DNA from: Maribacter forsetii DSM 18668
GTDB taxonomy: Bacteria; Bacteroidota; Bacteroidia; Flavobacteriales; Flavobacteriaceae
Reading direction: 5' to 3'
Assembly: GCF_000744105.1 (NCBI RefSeq)
Contig: NZ_JQLH01000001.1
Location: forward strand, 3,637,964 to 3,669,963
Length of the DNA stretch: 32,000 nt
Position 1 is the stretch's first letter. Each line of letters starts with the position of its first letter. Position numbers and translations under genes: made by a program. Shown here piece after piece: positions 14,216 to 23,066 of the stretch. The notes under the pieces were generated by a model. That model did not search any database and was not told the DNA's origin. It saw only the letters and a list, made by a program, of their open reading frames with translations.

Positions 14216-14830
14216 ATGAAAATAAAGTCGGCCGACTTTGTAATGAGCAACTCTGATGTTGCCAAATGCCCGAAAGAGCCTTTACCCGAGTACGCCTTTA
14301 TTGGTCGTTCTAACGTTGGTAAGTCTTCTTTGATCAATATGTTGACCGAGCGTAAAAGCTTGGCAAAAACATCTGGCAGACCTGGTAAGACACAATTGAT
14401 CAACCATTTTAAAATCAATGAAAATTGGTTTCTGGTAGATTTACCCGGTTACGGTTATGCCCGTGTTTCTAAAAGAGATAAAAATACCTTTCAAAAATAT
14501 ATCACCAATTACTTTTTACAACGAGAGCAGCTAGTGTGTTCTTTTGTACTTGTAGATATTCGCCATGATCCACAACCTATAGATATGGAGTTCATGCAGT
14601 GGATGGGTGAAAACGGAGTACCTTTTGCCATTATCTTCACCAAAGCAGATAAATTGAAACCGAAAGCCATTGAGCGCCAGGTAAAACAATATCTGGACAA
14701 ACTTTTAGCCGATATGTGGGAAGAAGCACCGCCACATTTTGTAACCAGCTCTAGCCACCGTAGCGGTCGTGATGAAGTACTGGCGTACATAGATGATATC
14801 AACGAGAAGTTTTTTGAGGCAACGAAGTAG
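14216..14830 (+). CDS. engB: ribosome-biogenesis GTPase YihA/YsxC (EngB)
   Basis: Has G1 [13 protein letters not shown]3 DLPGYG and G4 TKADK. The track starts at GTG 14180, inside the upstream gene. ATG 14216 ([11 protein letters not shown]…) matches typical EngB N-termini. Confidence 0.9.
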
Positions 14831-14857
14831 TTGTTGGTTGTTGGTTGTTCGTTTTTT

Positions 14858-14876
14858 AACGCTGCGCGTTTTTTGT
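14858..14876 (+). terminator. weak intrinsic-terminator-like hairpin plus T-run downstream of engB (a second copy lies at 14930-14947)
   Basis: AACGC-TGC-GCGTT is a 5-bp stem with a 3-nt loop, followed by TTTTT(T)G. The same module, with one loop change, lies at 28574-28590 after the 27821-28426 gene. The stem is short, so function is uncertain. Confidence 0.3.
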
Positions 14877-15402
14877 ATTAAGTACTTGTTCTAGTGTTCA
14901 GTTGGCAGTATCAGTTGGCAGTTTTTTTTAACGCTGCGCGTTTTTTGTATTAAGTATTAAGTACATAGCTGTTTGTGTTAGTTCTTTGTACTTCGTACTC
15001 AGAGCTGTTCGCTTTTTGCTATTCTCTTTACATTGCACATCCACTACTTAATACTTTGTACTTATTACTTTGTACTCTTTAATTACTTACGGCTTCATAC
15101 GCTGTACTTTTTACTCTTTAAAACCGAAATGTCACTTCGAGCGCAGTCGAGAACTTTGGAACACGAATCACTTCGGCTGCGCTCAGCGACCGAGTAAGCT
15201 CTACGACCGAGTGAGACCAACAACCAACAACCAAAAACCATCAACCAAGCGGGACCAACAACCAAATACAGAACACACCTTCAACAGATTGCCACGTCAC
15301 GATAAGCTCCTCGCAAAGACGAATATTAAAATCTCTCCGTCATAGCGAGCAAAGCGCGGCTATATGCTTATTTGGAACACGACACCCATCTCGTAAACGC
15401 AT

Positions 15403-15547
15403 TGTCAGTTCGAGTGATTTTAGCATGAGTGCAACGAAAGCCTAAAATTGTATCGAGAACCCTTGCGTGTTCCAAACCTGTTCTCGATACCCTCCTTATC
15501 GGCGGGCAAGCGAATTTCTAGTACCTCGAAATTCACTCGAACTGACA
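15403..15547. repeat. long-hairpin (MITE/REP-like) element, copy 1
   Basis: The outer inverted repeat is tgtcagttcgagtga (15403-15417) / tcactcgaactgaca (15533-15547). The inner inverted repeat is tatcgagaac (15451-15460) / gttctcgata (15480-15489). These flank the conserved apical sequence gcgtgttccaaacct. Related copies lie at 28663-28788 and 28885-29030. Confidence 0.8.
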
Positions 15548-15721
15548 GTGGTACTCGCTAACGAAAACATCTGAAAACTGAAACTGCTTACTGAAAACTT
15601 CCTCGTCAACGTCATAGCGAGCAAAACGCGGCTATCTTTTTGTTTGGAACACGAATCACTTCGGCTACGCTCAGCGACCGAGTAAGCTCAGAGACAGAGT
15701 AAGACCGACAACCGACAACCA

Positions 15722-16084
15722 TCAACTAAGCGTAGCGATCAACTCCTCCACCGTCTCCATAGCATTCAACTTCTCGGCAGACACCAACACCTCTAGGTCA
15801 TGATCTGTTTCTACCAATATAATAGGATAGGTATACTTATGCCCAAATTTGCTTTTATAGTTTTCTTGAAATTCATCTTTATGAAAGAATTCTAACTCGT
15901 AGCCTTTAGCTAACAAACTTTCCCTAAACCCTTTCCACTGCTTGTTCTCGGTAAAACTACCATAGGTTAAACTGCAGAGATTGCAGTTATAGGTAGCTGG
16001 GTTAATGATTTTATGGGCGAAATCTAGCATTTTACTGCCCGTATCGCTATTGGCATTATAGATAAATAGAATTTTCTTTGACAT
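15722..16084 (-). CDS. small conserved hypothetical protein, possibly thioredoxin/glutaredoxin-like fold
   Basis: 120-aa ORF with normal composition. It has a CNLC motif (YNCNLCSLTYG) in the pattern beta-strand (ILFIYNA), then CxxC, then YPIILV. This resembles small glutaredoxin-like proteins common in Bacteroidota. Function not established. Confidence 0.55.
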   Translation of the reverse strand: MSKKILFIYNANSDTGSKMLDFAHKIINPATYNCNLCSLTYGSFTENKQWKGFRESLLAKGYELEFFHKDEFQENYKSKFGHKYTYPIILVETDHDLEVLVSAEKLNAMETVEELIATLS

Positions 16085-16268
16085 GACCTTTTGGTCGTAA
16101 AAATACCCAAACCATACATATTTTTTAACCGATTATGGTTTCCCGTAATGGAGTTTGAAATGTTAATTGTAGGTTTATTCTTTAGTGGTATATTAGCTAA
16201 GTAAGCTTAACCCTCCAAAACAGGAAATAAACGTACTCTGGTCAGTTTATACGTACGTTGGCATTAAT

Positions 16269-17174
16269 TTGAACAAAATGAGAGTATTCATATCACATAG
16301 TAGTAAGGACAAAAAATTTGTTCGATTATTAAAAGACAGTTTATTAGAAAATAGTATTGAAACTTGGTTTGACGAAGACCAACTTGATTTAGGAGATAAA
16401 TTGGTTAATAAACTTGAAAATGCTTTAGATGATTCCTCGCATTTAGTAATCATTTTATCACCTTCCTCTATAAATTCTGATTGGGTAAATTTTGAATTGA
16501 AAAGAGCTATTAAAAATAATCGCACTGGATTGAATTCAAAAATAATTCCTATAAAATATAAAGAATGTAATGTTCCTGATGAAATTTCGGATTTACTTCA
16601 TGCAGATTTAACCGATGAAGTTGTTCTTCCCGACAATGATAGAGTTAAATTTATTTCAAGTGGTTTTGATAGTTTTTTTCTGAAATTAGTACGAACGATT
16701 AGAAATTCTGCAAAAACAATTACTAAAGCCGAAAAAGAAGAAATTTTAAAATCTATAAAAGCAAGTAAGCAAGCAGTAGACAAACATCAAAAATCAATTC
16801 ATAGGGGGAATTATAAATTAATAGGATACACAACGCTTGAATCAAGGAAAAAATTCCAAAATAAACTTAAAGGAAGAGTAGATAAAGTTGAGTCTATTGA
16901 AGACATCAAACCATTACTACTCCCTTATAGTTTGAAAACAGTTTATAAACCCGAATTGGGAATAAAGTTAATGGTTGAAGGAGACGAACTACCATTTGGT
17001 ACTGAAGCACATTTCGCAGGTTATAGGAATGACGATTTAGCAATTGCTGTTGATAAAAGAACTCGAGACGGAATAATGATTGATTTTGATAATTATTATC
17101 AAATAGAAATTGATCCAGAAAAAGATTTGATAAGGTTCGTGAATAAAATAAAAACTAATGCAAACACCGTATAA
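16269..17174 (+). CDS. TIR-domain protein with an uncharacterised ~170-aa C-terminal domain
   Basis: Residues about 4-130 read RVFISHSSKDKKFVRLLKDSL…WFDEDQLDLGDKL…LVIILSPSSINSDWVNFELKRAI. This is a canonical bacterial TIR pattern, with the conserved Glu at residue 76. The C-terminal half has no motif I recognise. Confidence 0.9.
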   Translation: MNKMRVFISHSSKDKKFVRLLKDSLLENSIETWFDEDQLDLGDKLVNKLENALDDSSHLVIILSPSSINSDWVNFELKRAIKNNRTGLNSKIIPIKYKECNVPDEISDLLHADLTDEVVLPDNDRVKFISSGFDSFFLKLVRTIRNSAKTITKAEKEEILKSIKASKQAVDKHQKSIHRGNYKLIGYTTLESRKKFQNKLKGRVDKVESIEDIKPLLLPYSLKTVYKPELGIKLMVEGDELPFGTEAHFAGYRNDDLAIAVDKRTRDGIMIDFDNYYQIEIDPEKDLIRFVNKIKTNANTV

Positions 17175-17336
17175 AAATAATTGCGATTTAGTGCTTAATC
17201 AAAGGTCGTTGCGTGTTTGTAACTTCTGATTTTCCTTCGGAAAATCCTCGCATAAAAATCCACAACTATTATTATACAAATACGTTGCAGCCAATGCAAA
17301 TCAGACATTACAGAAAGTTAAAAAACAACCAAAATT

Positions 17337-17894
17337 ATGAGTAAAAACTATAGCGCGTTTTATGTTAGTGAGCCTTTTAGTGAATCATCTCTTGGAGCGC
17401 ATGCTACCAAAGATTTTTGTTATTATAGTATATTAAAGGCATGGAAAGGTTCTGACTCTTCTTTTCCTTTTAATAATGCTCATGACACAACTTATAATGT
17501 TCGTGATAACAGTGACTGGGAATTAACACTTAAACCAAGACTGAGGCAAAGATTAAGAAACTCTAAAAACATCATATTATTTTTAAGTGAAAATACAAAA
17601 AGTTCTAGAGCGTTGAGAGAAGAAATAGATTATGGAACTAATACATTAAACCTTCCAATAATTGTTATTTATCCAGACTTAAAAACAAAAGAAGATTTAC
17701 TAAATAATGCTAATACTGGCTTGAATAATATTGTGAAAGCATTGTGGAACAAGCTACCAATTTTTAGAGATTCAAAATCGAACGTGCCTGTGCTACATGT
17801 TCCAATGAACAAAGTGATTATTCGGAAAGCATTAAATAATGTCAATTTAAGGGAGGGTTCTAAAAAAGAAGCTGGAGACTATTTTTATAACTAA
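17337..17894 (+). CDS. ThsB-like TIR-like domain protein (DUF1863 / MTH538-type)
   Basis: 185 aa. The pattern AFYVSEPF…FNNAHD…LKPRLRQRLRNSKNIILFLSENTKSSRALREEIDYG…LPIIVIYPD parallels the ThsB pattern FFSFHY…LK..I…VLIG..T..RRWV.YEI…IIGI. A Glu (E96) sits at the ThsB catalytic position. This is a memory-based alignment, not a search. Confidence 0.7.
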   Translation: MSKNYSAFYVSEPFSESSLGAHATKDFCYYSILKAWKGSDSSFPFNNAHDTTYNVRDNSDWELTLKPRLRQRLRNSKNIILFLSENTKSSRALREEIDYGTNTLNLPIIVIYPDLKTKEDLLNNANTGLNNIVKALWNKLPIFRDSKSNVPVLHVPMNKVIIRKALNNVNLREGSKKEAGDYFYN

Positions 17895-17900
17895 GTAAAT

Positions 17901-18743
17901 ATGAAAGTTAATTTTTTAGATAAAAATGTAAGAAACAAATTCTGGATTTACTTTTCAGTAATTTCTGGTATTTTGTCATTCATATTACTTTTTAATATCA
18001 TTCCTGACCAATACAACAATTGTTTAAAATACTTTGGTTATGCAGCATTTGTAGTATTAATTTTGATTTATTTATTTATTTGGTACAGAGCTAATAATCT
18101 TACCAATATAAATATTGATATTGAGGGCAGTAATGTAAATATCAAATGCGGAGACTTATTTTCTGAGAAAGGACTAAAAACAATACCTTTTAATGAATTC
18201 TTTGACACAATAGTAGATGATAAAATTATATCCAATAAATCTCTTAACGGTATTTTTATTAATCGATTTTTTAATGATAATCTAAATGAACTTGATACAT
18301 TTATTGTAGAAAATTCAGATAGTTCAGATATAATTGACAACGAATTTGAAAGGACAAGAGGAGGTAAAAAAGTTAAATTTAAACTTAGTACATTATTTGT
18401 GCATGATGATTATATAATAACTGCATTTTCTAAGTTTGACGAACATAATAAGGCAACTTTGACTATGCCTGAATACATAGAATTTTTAATTAACTTTTGG
18501 GATAGAGTCAACCGCATTTATGCACAAAAAAATGTTTCTGTTCCCATTTTTGGCTCTGGGATAACTCGACTGAAAGAGCACAAAAATATAGGTGACGAGG
18601 ATTTATTAAAGATAATGCTATGGACATTTAAACTAAGTGAAATGAAATTCAAATATCCCGCAAAACTATCAATAATAATTCATGAGGATAAAATTGACCA
18701 AATCAATCTATACAATTTAAAATCTATTGAACTTGGATTGTAA
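17901..18743 (+). CDS. membrane-anchored (2 TM) protein with a Macro-like C-terminal domain; candidate Thoeris type II ThsA-like effector
   Basis: Starts 6 nt after the previous stop. The TM helices are at about residues 14-34 (FWIYFSVISGILSFILLFNII) and 44-62 (YFGYAAFVVLILIYLFIWY). The soluble domain (~70-280) carries VNIKCGDLF…IPFNEFFDT and SVPIFGSGITR, which resemble the two Macro-domain ligand loops (GD…N and P-x-x-G-[ST]-G). The domain call is inferential. Confidence 0.55.
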   Translation: MKVNFLDKNVRNKFWIYFSVISGILSFILLFNIIPDQYNNCLKYFGYAAFVVLILIYLFIWYRANNLTNINIDIEGSNVNIKCGDLFSEKGLKTIPFNEFFDTIVDDKIISNKSLNGIFINRFFNDNLNELDTFIVENSDSSDIIDNEFERTRGGKKVKFKLSTLFVHDDYIITAFSKFDEHNKATLTMPEYIEFLINFWDRVNRIYAQKNVSVPIFGSGITRLKEHKNIGDEDLLKIMLWTFKLSEMKFKYPAKLSIIIHEDKIDQINLYNLKSIELGL

Positions 18744-19189
18744 TTCATAGCTATTAAATGAAGAAAGTATTAGCTACAAAATAGCTATAAACAATTGGGA
18801 ATAAAGTGATTAAAGAAAAGTATAACCATAATAAAAAGTCTGTTCTAAAATAAAAAGTTAGAGCATGAAATCCCCAACTGTCAATAGCCGAGACCATTGA
18901 ACAAAATTAGAGAAACGAAATACCAAATAAAGATTGTTAATTAGAATATTCACACATTTCAAATTTCACTAAATCTTTAATAGCATTAGTGGATAAATTG
19001 AAATTATAACTTTCTATAACAACGTAAATAAAATATAGCTTATAAGAGTTAAACTGAAAGATTTTGTTTATTTACAAAAAACGACAAATTTTAAAATCTG
19101 GCTCTGTGTTTATATTAAAAATAAGCTGCTTTTTTACATTTCGTTTCATACATAAACCATCAGGCAAAATTTAATATCCCCGTTCAGAC

Positions 19190-19768
19190 ATGAATATTAC
19201 TTTTATAATTATTTTAATTGCAATTTGCTCGTATTTGATTTTGGATAACATCAAAATAAGGAAAATATTAAATGAGTATAATTCTGAATTTTCTGAACGC
19301 CAAAAATCATTGAAATTAATTGAAATTAAAATATCAAAGAATAGGAAAGAGTTTGCAAATATAGAAAGAGAGTTATTTAATATTCGAATTCAAAAAGAGA
19401 AGGAAAAACTTATGTTATCTAAACTTCCAACAGAAGAATACACAAACTTAACCATTAATCAATTCAGGAAAATAACGAATAATTTAATTCAGAAAGTGGA
19501 AAATTCTATTGAAAAAGAATCTATAATTAATTTTTTAAAATTTGACTTATCATATATCGATTTGAGCAAAGTGACTTTTGAAAATCTTGAGTTAAACAGA
19601 GAAGTTGAAATAGAAAAACAAGTCGCAATAATTACCAATAGCGGAAAAATACAATGGCGAAATAGTGCTGACAACCTGAATGTCAACCTTATAATTGGAA
19701 AACCTTTAAAAAGAATCGAATATTACAATAAAGTTATAGAATTAATTATGAAAAATATTGTTGATTAA
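19190..19768 (+). CDS. hypothetical membrane-anchored coiled-coil protein
   Basis: 192 aa. Has an N-terminal TM (ITFIIILIAICSYLIL) followed by a Lys/Glu-rich heptad-like region. No recognisable catalytic motif. Very AT-rich. Confidence 0.55.
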   Translation: MNITFIIILIAICSYLILDNIKIRKILNEYNSEFSERQKSLKLIEIKISKNRKEFANIERELFNIRIQKEKEKLMLSKLPTEEYTNLTINQFRKITNNLIQKVENSIEKESIINFLKFDLSYIDLSKVTFENLELNREVEIEKQVAIITNSGKIQWRNSADNLNVNLIIGKPLKRIEYYNKVIELIMKNIVD

Positions 19769-19951
19769 ATTTAATTATGTATTACAATGAGCTCAAAAAC
19801 AAACAAATTCTTCTTTGAATCTGATACAATATTATTCTAAGCTCATAGACTCTAAAATCAGATTCTTTGAGCTTTTTTTTTAGATAATTATAAATCACAA
19901 GACAACTAATCAATAGTAAATACGTTATCGCTTTTTAAAGATTTATCCTTA

Positions 19952-21001
19952 ATGGCAAGAATATACAGAACCATAGAATCATTGAAATCTCTAAAATATG
20001 AGTTAGAAAGTAGAGGTGTTACTAGATTTAAATCTGTTAAAGAAATTAAAGAATTTTTAAAAGAATTTGATTCGGAAAAACAAGCAGTTCTAAATTACAC
20101 TAAAAACGAACTGAATGAAGAATATCATAAAACCTGTATACGTCTTAAAAGCAACACCCAAAAAAGGGTTGAAATAAGCAACTTAGCGACAGAAAAGATT
20201 GATGGACAAATTGCAGATTTACAATCAAAAATTGATATAATTCATAAAAAGAACGGTCTTAATTTTATAAACAAACTACTATCAAGTGTAAAGCTTTATT
20301 ATTTAAACAAACAACGCAATGATTTTAAAGTCAGGAAATCTAAAATAATCAATAAAGTTGTTCAGCCATTATCTCAAAAAATTAAAATTGACGAGCATTT
20401 TATATACGAATATGAAACTGACAAGCAATTATTGATTGAAACAAGAGCTAATCTTAAAATTGCTGATGTGGAATACACCCGTGATGTTTTAGAAGAATGT
20501 AAAAACCTAATTTCTGGAGCAATAGGAGAAAACTTGGTTGTAAAAGAAATTAAAAAACTTTCTGACGATTACGTTTTAATTAACGACTTCAAATTAGAAT
20601 TTTCTCCACCAATTTTTTACCAACAACAAAACGAGAGAATTTACTCTATACAAATAGACCACCTTTTAATTTCAAAAGCTGGAATTTTTATAATAGAAAC
20701 AAAAAACTGGAGCAAGAAGTCTGTCAATTCATTTAGCCTTAGGTCGCCTATAGAACAAATTAGAAGATTAAATTTTGCGCTTTACATATACATTTCAGAA
20801 AACATAACTTTGCATGACCATCATTGGGGAGAACAAAAAATTCCGATTCGAAATCTTATTGTCATGATCAACAATAAACCTAACACTCAATTTAAATATG
20901 TAAGTGTAAAATTATTGAGAGAACTTAATGCCTATATTAATTACTTTGAGCCTATCTTGACCGAGGAACAGGTTAATGAAATATCAAGTCAATTAATTTA
21001 A
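19952..21001 (+). CDS. NERD (nuclease-related) domain protein with a long N-terminal coiled-coil
   Basis: 349 aa. The C-terminal half reads GAIGENLVVKEIKKLSDDYVLINDFKLEF…IQIDHLLISKAGIFIIETKNWSKKS. This fits the NERD signature (GxxGE … D-h-h-h … E-x-K, PD-(D/E)xK-like). Confidence 0.8.
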   Translation: MARIYRTIESLKSLKYELESRGVTRFKSVKEIKEFLKEFDSEKQAVLNYTKNELNEEYHKTCIRLKSNTQKRVEISNLATEKIDGQIADLQSKIDIIHKKNGLNFINKLLSSVKLYYLNKQRNDFKVRKSKIINKVVQPLSQKIKIDEHFIYEYETDKQLLIETRANLKIADVEYTRDVLEECKNLISGAIGENLVVKEIKKLSDDYVLINDFKLEFSPPIFYQQQNERIYSIQIDHLLISKAGIFIIETKNWSKKSVNSFSLRSPIEQIRRLNFALYIYISENITLHDHHWGEQKIPIRNLIVMINNKPNTQFKYVSVKLLRELNAYINYFEPILTEEQVNEISSQLI

Positions 21002-21040
21002 ACAAACCCTATTCACAAACCCTATTCACAAACACAATAC

Positions 21041-21499
21041 ATGGAACAACAAGGCTCAGATATCATTGCAAATAGATACAAGAAATTTATAAAAACGGTT
21101 TGCGAAACAGACATTGTTTATGCGCTTCAAAATCATGAAGGCTTTGCCACCTCAGCTTCTGCGCATTATGAAAATGAACGTGGTAAACCTGTTGACATAC
21201 TATGTTTTTGGGCAGAAAATGGCAGAGCAAAATCTTGTACCATAAACCATTGGGAGAACTACCAGATTACAGAAATAGCATTAGTTGATTTCATAGAAAA
21301 TTGGGGTGTAGGCATGGAAAATGACGGAATATTAGCAGGTATTGAATTCGACCAAAATATGTTTGGCTATGAAGCTAAACCCTTAGATTTAATTCTTGCC
21401 TTAGTTGCTGAAATAAAAGCGACCAATAAAGAACTACCACTTCAAAAATTTGAAAATATTGCTGATTTAGAAAAACAGGCGAAAGAGGCGAATGGGTAA
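21041..21499 (+). CDS. small cytoplasmic hypothetical protein, DUF2750-like
   Basis: 152 aa. The pattern RYKKFIKTV…VYALQNHEGFA…LCFWAENGRAKSC…ITEIALVDFIENW…DGILAGIEF resembles my recollection of the DUF2750 family. Unverified. Confidence 0.5.
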   Translation: MEQQGSDIIANRYKKFIKTVCETDIVYALQNHEGFATSASAHYENERGKPVDILCFWAENGRAKSCTINHWENYQITEIALVDFIENWGVGMENDGILAGIEFDQNMFGYEAKPLDLILALVAEIKATNKELPLQKFENIADLEKQAKEANG

Positions 21500-21552
21500 A
21501 AAATTAATACCGTTTAATGAGTAGCATTTTAGCAAGTAGATAAAAGTGCCTC

Positions 21553-22251
21553 TTATAATTTCAGAAAATCAAGAACTTTAGTTTTATATACTTTACCTAT
21601 GGGAACTTGATGCTCTTTTATTTGTATTCTATTGCCCTCTAAAGTTTCAATATGTTTTTTTGCTACTATAAATGATTTATGTACTTGAATGAATTTATCT
21701 TCAGCAAGCATTTCTAATGCATCTGATATTTTTTCTCGAATTAGAATCTGACCTTCGATTAAAATAACCTTACAATAGTTTCCGGCTGCTTCAACAAGTA
21801 ATATATCATTCAATTTTACCTGAATATGCTTTTTATCGCTGTATAGAAAAATGAACGATTCTTCTACATTTTTTATAGCTTCTAATTGTAGTGAATAACC
21901 TTTTTGTTGTATGGTTTTATTGATGGCTTTCAAAAACCGTTCAAAACTAAATGGTTTTAATAAATAATCTATAACATTCAGCTCATACCCTTCTAAAGCA
22001 TACTCCCTGTAGGCTGTAGTGACTATAATTTTTGGAGGATTCTGTAGTGTTCTTAAAAAATCGAATCCCTTTAATTTGGGCATATTTAAATCTAAAAAAA
22101 TTAAATCTACTTGATTACCCTGCAAATAGGCCAATGCTTCTATAGCGTCATAACAATGCTTAGCTAATTTCATATTTGACAACAAATCACCATAGCCTTT
22201 TATGATTTCATGAGCTATTGGTTCATCATCAATAATTAAATATGTAATCAT
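21553..22251 (-). CDS. LytR/AlgR-family response regulator (REC + LytTR DNA-binding domain)
   Basis: 232 aa. The receiver domain has the phospho-acceptor context LIFLDLNMP. The C-terminal LytTR pattern reads IQVKLNDILLVEAAGNYCKV…FIQVHKSFIV. There is a 4-nt overlap with the kinase gene. Confidence 0.9.
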   Translation of the reverse strand: MITYLIIDDEPIAHEIIKGYGDLLSNMKLAKHCYDAIEALAYLQGNQVDLIFLDLNMPKLKGFDFLRTLQNPPKIIVTTAYREYALEGYELNVIDYLLKPFSFERFLKAINKTIQQKGYSLQLEAIKNVEESFIFLYSDKKHIQVKLNDILLVEAAGNYCKVILIEGQILIREKISDALEMLAEDKFIQVHKSFIVAKKHIETLEGNRIQIKEHQVPIGKVYKTKVLDFLKL

Positions 22252-23066
22252 ACGTGTAGTTCTAATTGTGCTTTAAATACTATATTGTTCTTTTCTACAC
22301 TAAGTTGATGCTTTTTAGGATATGCCAGCGCCAATCTTCGTTTTAAGTTTTTGAGACCTATCCCTTTTGTCTCTGTAATTTCATTTTGATCAAAATTGTT
22401 TTTTATCTCAAAAAGTAATCTTTCGTTACCGGTTTTTAAATGTATGGCAACATATGCTTTTTCCCGCAAATTCTCTACACCATGTTTAAAGGCATTCTCT
22501 AATAGAATAATCAATAACAATGGTCTTATTTTTAATGTATCATCTACTACATCTATTATAAACTCAATATCAATTTTCTTATGATACCTCATTTTATGTA
22601 ACGCTATGTAATTTTGTAAATACGAAATCTCTTCTGCCAACGTAACAGTTTCCTTTTCCCCTTCATAAATACTATACCGCATTAAATCTGACAACTTTAA
22701 AATAAGGTCTTTAGCCCCATCGGTATCTTTATCAACCATACCGTACACATTGTTTAACATGTTAAAAAAGAAATGCGGGTTCACCTGACTTTGCAAATGC
22801 AACAACTCACTTTTTTTGGTTTCATTTTTTAAATTTAAAATGGCGATCAATTGTTTTATTAGCCATAGCAACCCAACCACTAGTAAGAGTGAATAATAAA
22901 CAACCACGATTACACCTACTACCGATGGGTAATCTGCCAGAAAAACAACAGATTCATTACCTAAGATAATAAACTCATACGTGGTAATTGACAAAGGGAT
23001 CAGTATAGTTATTAGCACCACTACTTTGACTACCAGCCAATTATTTTTCTTTAAAAATTGCATCAT
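22248..23066 (-). CDS. LytS/YehU-type sensor histidine kinase (2 TM, minimal sensor)
   Basis: 272 aa with two N-terminal TM segments. The His-kinase region LQSQVNPHFFFNMLNNV is typical of the LytS-type (His_kinase) family. The N-box reads LLENAFKHG. Confidence 0.85.
   Translation of the reverse strand: MMQFLKKNNWLVVKVVVLITILIPLSITTYEFIILGNESVVFLADYPSVVGVIVVVYYSLLLVVGLLWLIKQLIAILNLKNETKKSELLHLQSQVNPHFFFNMLNNVYGMVDKDTDGAKDLILKLSDLMRYSIYEGEKETVTLAEEISYLQNYIALHKMRYHKKIDIEFIIDVVDDTLKIRPLLLIILLENAFKHGVENLREKAYVAIHLKTGNERLLFEIKNNFDQNEITETKGIGLKNLKRRLALAYPKKHQLSVEKNNIVFKAQLELHV

Follow-up and report, generated by a model that had tools for sequence, protein, structure and literature searches.

A 32,000-nucleotide (nt) stretch of the Maribacter forsetii DSM 18668 genome, referred to here as the window (assembly GCF_000744105.1, contig NZ_JQLH01000001.1, positions 3,637,964 to 3,669,963 of the forward strand), carries three neighbouring genes. 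As a whole they are very probably best explained as a canonical type II Thoeris module, thsBA, at 17175-18954, and a separately acquired TIR gene upstream of it, gene 1. The three open reading frames (ORFs) are co-directional on the plus strand (Table 1) and fall in the lowest-GC tract of the window, with a GC content of 0.24-0.30 over ~16000-21500 vs 0.36-0.40 elsewhere. They comprise 185-300 codons in DNA of 27-30% GC and match protein profiles with E-values of 1e-25 to 1e-115; length and profile matches together place them far beyond chance. An original prediction, made from the letters alone, had described three co-directional genes in the most AT-rich part of the window, and the ORF coordinates and GC profile agree. 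Profile searches against Pfam and the PDB, together with a PADLOC run on the genes, showed all three of its domain calls to be correct. Its assignment of a TIR signal generator and a Macro receptor with two transmembrane (TM) helices to type II Thoeris is borne out jointly by profile, structure-database and synteny evidence. The domain identities, the conservation of catalytic and ligand residues, the thsB-thsA synteny and the module boundaries described below are observed in the window and its relatives.

The effector ThsA matches the Pfam family ThsA_Macro (PF20016; 8.5e-61) over residues 79-261, covering 183 of 183 profile positions, and the PADLOC model ThsA1 (5.3e-115) over residues 1-279, a match that spans the full length of the model and aligns from residue 1. 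In the PDB, it matches 8v6s (2.1e-85) and 8v6q (8v6q/8v6r; 4.6e-84), which are crystal structures of ThsA Macro domains (Shi et al. 2024). A further match is 8r66 (9.4e-48), the Macro domain of Bacillus amyloliquefaciens Y2 ThsA (BaThsA), which was crystallised with histidine-ADP-ribose (His-ADPR). The soluble domain, which had been called Macro-like on pattern recognition, therefore does have Macro similarity by profile, with E-values down to 2.1e-85. The Macro domain is preceded by two stretches that are hydrophobic on the Kyte-Doolittle scale (residues 13-36 and 40-67; 19-residue windows >1.6), in line with the two N-terminal TM helices that had been proposed. In the E. coli homologue, deletion of the TM helices abolishes defence (bioRxiv 10.64898/2026.01.22.701046).

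The ligand pocket of the Macro domain is retained. Shi et al. (PMC11204291) describe residues of E. coli ThsA (EcThsA) that contact ADP-ribose (ADPR) or stabilise the fold. All ten that we mapped are kept in the window protein at a constant offset of +2: D85, D102, L115, N116 and S177 correspond to EcThsA D83, D100, L113, N114 and S175, and S219, G220, T222, H261 and K264 to S217, G218, T220, H259 and K262. The 'GD' and 'FGSGIT' motifs, previously suggested as Macro ligand loops, hold mapped contacts, D85 in the former and S219, G220 and T222 in the latter. The window ThsA and BaThsA also have the GSGITR loop in common. A constant residue offset would equate R223 of this loop with R240 of BaThsA, the arginine that binds His-ADPR through the carboxylate of its histidine (bioRxiv 10.1101/2024.01.03.573942).

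The product of thsB matches ThsB_TIR/DUF1863 (PF08937; 5.9e-26) in Pfam and, over its full length, the PADLOC model ThsB1 (1.8e-69), which agrees with the DUF1863/ThsB fold originally assigned to it. Among solved structures, it matches 3hyn and 9uv0 (~4e-68) and E. coli ThsB2 (EcThsB2; 8v6t, 1e-9). The entry 9uv0 was deposited as ThsB together with 9uuz. Because the 9uuz fragment and 8r66 align identically to the window protein over their common span, 9uv0 is probably the ThsB of the B. amyloliquefaciens Y2 system. In a multiple alignment, Y5 of the window ThsB lies opposite EcThsB2 Y8, the tyrosine position having been counted explicitly, and E96 lies opposite the glutamate of the conserved EcThsB2-type HEID motif. 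We equate the HEID glutamate with E89, the catalytic residue in Shi et al.; on these terms, E96 occupies the putative catalytic position at which it had been placed. A Tyr plus Glu active site of ThsB has been reported solely for TM-Macro Thoeris systems (Shi et al., PMC11204291).

The two genes form a conserved pair. As had been noted, thsA starts 6 nt after the thsB stop. Among 80 metagenome loci that encode ThsA relatives of 53-97% identity, a ThsB homologue adjoins thsA in 78, nearly always directly upstream. DNA of thsB-thsA or of thsA, with ~66-71% nt identity to the window, is also found in E. coli, where it occurs in 202 of 5426 complete genomes on both chromosomes and plasmids (plasmid-borne in 6). 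The E. coli occurrence indicates that the same Thoeris subtype has spread horizontally across phyla. Given the thsB-thsA adjacency in relatives and the E. coli copies, thsBA is a canonical, widely mobile type II Thoeris module. It is readily called by standard defence annotators: the PADLOC and Pfam models of both ThsA and ThsB match outright. NCBIfam has no thsA or thsB model. Two of the loci that we collected are from E. coli (L169 and L170); in L170, a divergent thsB2/thsA arrangement lies next to mobQ, as in strain ATCC 25922.

The module boundaries follow from comparison with close relatives. A TARA Oceans contig (L083) is 93.6% identical to the window at the nt level over 17145-18954. 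It also matches a left block at 15786-16184, the 120-amino-acid (aa) minus-strand gene, at 85%. The interval between these blocks is occupied by gene 1 in the window (16185-17144) and, in L083 (401-1067), by an unrelated gene for a 203-aa DUF4236 / TM / lipoyl-like protein. Two near-identical genomes thus differ by a clean swap of one cassette for another. In two other relatives (L082 and L104), identity to the window starts at ~17269-17283 and the upstream genes and contexts are different. On the 3' side, identity ends at 18954 with L083 and at 18797 with L082. These identity boundaries show that thsBA travels with its own upstream leader of ~60-160 nt and that the slot upstream of it is variable. 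The leader holds a hairpin, GATTTTCC-TTCG-GGAAAATC, at 17228-17247 and a conserved motif, CGTTGCAGCCAATGC, at 17283-17297. In 17 of 65 related loci, this motif, in the form CGTTRTAGCCAATGG (CAGCCAATG in the window), lies ~45-70 nt 5' of the ATG of thsB; the regular expression TAG[CG]CAATG gave only three matches in 849 kb of background. The motif is conserved even where the adjoining DNA is not, which makes it a candidate promoter or operator for thsB genes of this clade.

To place the module among known systems, we compared it with type II Thoeris of B. amyloliquefaciens Y2 and of E. coli. Like the former, whose signal is His-ADPR, it has a two-gene core in which a small TIR-like ThsB stands beside a 2TM-Macro effector, with the GSGITR loop and the pocket residues kept in the Macro domain (9.4e-48 to 8r66). 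It differs from that system in its host, which belongs to the Bacteroidota and not the Bacillota, and in the extra TIR gene upstream. The E. coli CFT073 and ATCC 25922 systems combine a TM-Macro ThsA with a DUF1863 ThsB2 and a larger pf13676 protein, ThsB1 (PMC11204291; bioRxiv 10.64898/2026.01.22.701046). The window locus resembles these systems (8v6q, 8v6r, 8v6s, 8v6t) in having a TM-Macro effector, a small DUF1863 ThsB with Tyr/Glu and, as third component, a larger TIR protein (pf13676) that carries an additional domain. In contrast to the E. coli system, however, ThsB here falls within the 3hyn/9uv0 subgroup and reaches just 1e-9 to EcThsB2. Gene order and orientation also differ from ATCC 25922, in which thsB2 is divergent from thsA. 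The extra domain of gene 1 is predicted to be a C-terminal cradle-loop-type barrel, unlike the extra region of EcThsB1: a schematic of the CFT073 system includes a bacterial PH domain (Shi et al.), and in ATCC 25922, the non-TIR part of ThsB1 is N-terminal (Englert et al.). Finally, type I Thoeris has a SIR2-SLOG ThsA, whereas neither SIR2 nor SLOG was matched in the seven ORFs scanned over 15722-21499 (Pfam, PADLOC).

These comparisons bear on three claims of difference that had been made for the locus. Two dissimilar TIR genes are indeed present, but the arrangement is not new, given the precedent of E. coli CFT073 and ATCC 25922. Nor is a gliding flavobacterium a new host: TM-Macro Thoeris in Flavobacterium, Prevotella and Porphyromonas is listed in table S2 of Shi et al., which was built on the dataset of Doron et al. 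A possibly different signal molecule was not upheld for the thsBA pair, in which ThsB matches 9uv0 at 4e-68 and the Macro pocket is kept, including the putative His-ADPR-binding arginine. Type II systems with two ThsBs and Flavobacterium hosts have both been published. The pair is one more instance of a well-characterised defence family, in a marine flavobacterium, and with its E. coli counterparts (pairs of ~70% nt identity in 202 of 5426 genomes) it confirms that the module has been transferred nearly unchanged across phyla.

A mechanism for the module can be proposed from its characterised relatives (PMC11204291; 10.1101/2024.01.03.573942; 10.64898/2026.01.22.701046). Upon infection, ThsB would use Y5 and E96 to turn NAD+ into a histidine-ADPR-type signal, which would occupy the conserved pocket of the ThsA Macro domain. 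Ligand-bound Macro dimers would then build open-ended oligomers. This would cluster the N-terminal TM helices and perturb the membrane, resulting in growth arrest or abortive infection. Of these steps, the chemistry of the signal, the assembly of oligomers and the phenotype of defence are carried over by analogy from B. amyloliquefaciens Y2, E. coli CFT073 and ATCC 25922, and we infer that they apply to the M. forsetii proteins.

Gene 1 is the only part of the locus with research value, as a possible modular combination of a TIR domain and a barrel sensor. Its start had been placed at TTG 16269. Two observations make ATG 16278 almost certainly the true start: the NCBI model, a M. forsetii TIR protein to which the product is 100% identical, has 298 aa, and every homologue begins with MKVFISHSS. 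The TIR call itself stands: residues 6-117 match Pfam TIR_2 (6.8e-25), and F4, S6, H7, S8, W69 and E73 are invariant in a family alignment of 36 sequences. E73, previously numbered E76, is the glutamate of the W-x-x-x-E motif (DWVNFELK). The closest solved relatives of the domain are the NADase TIRs AbTir, BtTIR and AaTIR (7uxu, 7uxr, 7uwg; ~5e-14), with which it has the FISH-type strand and the WxxxE glutamate in common. Those proteins pair the TIR domain with coiled-coil or other N-terminal regions, whereas in gene 1 the TIR domain is itself N-terminal. The best PADLOC match of gene 1, PDC-S66, was rejected as an identification: only residues 4-98 align, to positions 149-243 of 282, so that the match covers the TIR part alone, which is located elsewhere in the model protein. 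NCBIfam gave only sub-threshold matches in the TIR region, and searches of phage sequences (INPHARED and IMG/VR) gave TIR-domain-only matches. Look-ups by the exact sequence of the gene 1 protein returned no record.

The layout predicted for gene 1 is an N-terminal TIR domain, a helical linker and a C-terminal beta-barrel. In a Foldseek search with the full-length protein, TIR folds dominate; the C-terminal domain (~120-130 aa) was then modelled separately, and with high confidence, by AlphaFold2 (pLDDT 88.9, pTM 0.80). The best Foldseek matches of this model are uniformly double-psi beta-barrel (DPBB) domains (E 1.4e-2, target TM-score 0.61-0.68). A profile of the gene 1 family weakly matches 2glw (E 0.014), which we take to be the swapped-hairpin AbrB-like barrel protein PhS018. 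The domain of gene 1 has no Pfam family match; only one family member matches Pfam MazE_antitoxin (0.006). The predicted fold thus resembles cradle-loop barrels (AbrB/MazE, the DPBB of the VCP/Cdc48 N-domain, and PhS018), with E-values of only ~1e-2, and the model has an additional N-terminal strand-helix element relative to them. We tentatively assign the domain as a cradle-loop barrel of the double-psi or swapped-hairpin, AbrB-like type. Cradle-loop barrels elsewhere bind peptides, proteins or DNA, which makes a role as infection sensor module plausible.

Gene 1 belongs to a family of full-length proteins (~290-312 aa) with the same TIR and C-terminal domains, here termed TIR-CTD, that is conserved in Bacteroidota. 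Its hosts include Flavobacterium, Nonlabens, Lacinutrix, Pedobacter, Mucilaginibacter and Chitinophagaceae. We examined 24 distinct loci and used a ThsA profile search so that divergent effectors would not be missed. A ThsA_Macro gene adjoins the TIR-CTD gene in three of them. In the window, the order is TIR-CTD, thsB, thsA, and gene 1 ends 162 nt 5' of thsB. In the second locus (L167), the order is thsA, thsB, TIR-CTD, in a compact trio among housekeeping genes. In the third, from Flavobacterium sp. 90 (L001), thsA follows TIR-CTD after 48 nt and the locus has no other TIR gene. The ThsA proteins of L001 and L167 are 60% identical to each other and each ~28% identical to the window ThsA; the two ThsBs, of the window and L167, are 33% identical. 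Because it involves two effector lineages and three gene orders, the TIR-CTD/ThsA association argues against pure coincidence.

What gene 1 does in this locus admits two readings. In the first, to which we give a slightly better than even chance, it works here alongside thsB as an accessory ThsB of the 'ThsB1' type. Its TIR domain would cleave NAD+, its barrel would act as a sensor, and the NAD+-derived product would also trigger ThsA, which would widen the range of phages sensed; in other loci, family members would be self-contained TIR NADases that work alone. There is a precedent in EcThsB1, which is proposed to feed ThsA: its TIR domain makes ADPR and imidazole-ADPR (IAD), and the Macro domain of EcThsA binds the two products (PMC11204291; 10.64898/2026.01.22.701046). 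In the second reading, whose chances we put a little short of even, gene 1 is a single-gene TIR defence or toxin in its own right, which merely lies in the same defence island as Thoeris and has no ThsA role: the barrel would sense a phage component, and self-association of the TIR domain would deplete NAD+.

Several observations weigh against an accessory role. By the profile search, 21 of the 24 TIR-CTD loci lack ThsA. In 18 of the 24, the gene is solitary, in some cases between housekeeping genes and in others by integrases, and in three more (Pedobacter, Mucilaginibacter) a DUF8370/DUF8371 gene abuts it on the upstream side. None of the 80 loci related to thsBA has gene 1, and the nearest relative with the same left flank, L083, has the unrelated DUF4236 gene in its slot. 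The conserved leader of thsB suggests that thsB may be transcribed independently. In E. coli ATCC 25922, thsA and thsB2 suffice for defence, and the toxicity of ThsB1 is independent of its WxxxE motifs. The solitary loci, the absence from thsBA relatives, the gene swap in L083 and the thsB leader all favour the single-gene alternative, as does the affinity of the TIR domain to the free-standing NADase TIRs AbTir, BtTIR and AaTIR. Against that alternative stand the three independent-looking adjacencies to ThsA_Macro genes, each with a gene order of its own and together involving two ThsA clades that are 28% identical, and in particular L001, where ThsA has no other TIR partner. We conclude that gene 1 is a separable, separately acquired cassette whose link to Thoeris is facultative. 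Of the single three-gene cassette that had been envisaged, the thsB-thsA part holds (adjacent in 78 of 80 loci); gene 1, found in 0 of the 80 and with ThsA adjacency in 3 of 24 family loci, is a putative member.

Two further explanations concern the locus as a whole. A type I-like or other TIR system, in which cyclic ADP-ribose (cADPR) isomers act on a different effector and the Macro call is a false positive, could draw on the resemblance of the gene 1 TIR domain to TIRs that make 2'cADPR or 3'cADPR. However, the Macro match is full-length (1e-61 to 1e-115) with its pocket kept, and the flanking ORFs scanned with Pfam and PADLOC (15722-16084 and 19190-21499) showed no SIR2, SLOG or other Thoeris effector domain. 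The EcThsA Macro domain, moreover, does not bind 2'cADPR or 3'cADPR (PMC11204291). The profile, structure and pocket matches of the Macro domain thus effectively refute a type I-like system already, and we give it next to no credence. It is likewise very improbable that the cassette has decayed and persists in the AT-rich island as a non-functional remnant. Members of the gene 1 family in two other loci (L014, L017) are frameshifted, and the native system of E. coli ATCC 25922 has no phenotype at its chromosomal locus; against decay, all three of the window ORFs are intact and full-length relative to the profiles, their catalytic and ligand residues are conserved, and TARA relatives with 91-97% protein identity keep intact ORFs.

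Returning to the preferred explanation of a canonical thsBA module with a separately acquired gene 1, the TIR-CTD family may have a wider significance. It could represent an undescribed class of modular TIR sensors that mostly act as lone NADases and have repeatedly been recruited to TM-Macro effectors, either as a second ThsB or as an alternative one, a proposal that we regard as possible but on balance somewhat doubtful. If the proposal is true, signals that activate Macro effectors can also be made by a canonical TIR active site of the Phe type. If the family acts alone and also plugs into TM-Macro effectors, it would offer a tractable case for the swapping of TIR sensors between Thoeris effectors and for the sufficiency of generic ADPR-type products as triggers of Macro effectors.

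Several observations on the family stand apart from these questions. In a diverged TIR-CTD branch (L018, L022 and L023; Pedobacter and Mucilaginibacter), a 466-aa protein is encoded directly upstream of the TIR gene, with a 1-nt gap. A precomputed Pfam table assigns DUF8370 and DUF8371 to this protein; a direct scan against Pfam gave none. The pair, which adjoins McrBC and methyltransferases in Pedobacter, may be a distinct two-gene TIR system. In Lacinutrix neustonica (L014) and a Sphingobacteriaceae metagenome-assembled genome (L017), the TIR-CTD homologue is split into two overlapping ORFs by an apparent frameshift, so that decay seems to be under way in some members. The last 30 nt of gene 1 and its stop region (17141-17184) recur at 4030-4073 of L082, with 79.5% identity over 44 nt. 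This copy is intergenic, ~800 nt 3' of thsA on another contig. It may have been left behind by a TIR-CTD gene, or it may be a short motif of recombination or repeat origin.

Table 1. Features of the thsBA locus and its surroundings (positions in the window).
Feature	Position	Strand	Description
Gene 1 (TIR-CTD)	16278..17174	+	298-aa TIR protein with C-terminal domain; TTG at 16269 probably 9 nt too early
Gene 1 TIR domain	16278..16652	+	FISHSS strand; Glu E73 (E76 from TTG start)
Gene 1 C-terminal domain	16791..17150	+	~120 aa; predicted beta-barrel, cradle-loop topology
thsB upstream leader	17175..17336	+	hairpin 17228-17247 and conserved motif 17283-17297
thsB	17337..17894	+	185-aa single-domain TIR-like (DUF1863) putative signal synthase; Y5 and E96
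thsA (ThsC in 2025 nomenclature)	17901..18743	+	280-aa effector; two TM helices and Macro domain
Predicted TM helices of ThsA (two)	17940..18086	+	~residues 14-34 and 44-62 (Kyte-Doolittle)
ThsA Macro domain	18135..18683	+	residues 79-261; pocket D85, D102, L115, N116, S177, S219, G220, T222, R223, H261, K264
Conserved 3' flank of thsBA	18744..18954	+	hairpin 18856-18879, terminator-like
192-aa protein	within 19190-21499	co-directional	N-terminal TM helix; no family match
349-aa NERD-domain protein	within 19190-21499	co-directional	PF08378, 1.1e-14
DUF2750 protein	within 19190-21499	co-directional	1.2e-24

Candidate ends of a mobile element were also considered. A 16-nt direct repeat at 16269 and 18897 (15 of 16 positions matching), which flanks the three genes, was rejected as chance-level: on a rough reckoning, 7.5 kb of AT-rich sequence should contain about a dozen pairs of this kind by chance, and 19 comparable families were listed. 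The hairpin motif GAAAATCCTCGC, considered as a repeated cassette boundary, has a single exact copy in the window, and its near-matches are at chance level. A sigma-70 promoter and terminator scan returned counts equal to the shuffled expectation; its model does not cover Bacteroidota promoters. No tRNA or tmRNA genes were found in the window, and Rfam gave no match at the gathering threshold, nor at E<=1 around the locus.

The sequence on either side of the locus has features of its own. To the left, a gene-free region of ~900 bp at 14830-15720, between engB and the 120-aa minus-strand gene, has a GC content of 0.42-0.43. It is densely filled with nested repeats and contains two copies each of an 84-nt unit (15155 and 15643; 88% identical), a 45-nt unit (15338 and 15610) and an exact 33-nt unit (14852 and 14924), as well as inverted repeats that include 22-nt arms at 15400 and 15529. 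The region has no Rfam or tRNA match and looks like repetitive extragenic palindromic (REP) or miniature inverted-repeat transposable element (MITE)-like intergenic elements. To the right, the AT-rich island holds three further co-directional genes at 19190-21499 (Table 1), which gave no meaningful PADLOC match and may be additional island cargo. Beyond them, on the minus strand at 21553-23066, the gene for a LytTR-type response regulator, whose best NCBIfam matches are BtsR/LytR-like and sub-threshold, overlaps an upstream 272-aa ORF by 4 nt. Because both of these ORFs have a low GC content (0.30-0.32), the AT-rich island may reach ~23 kb.

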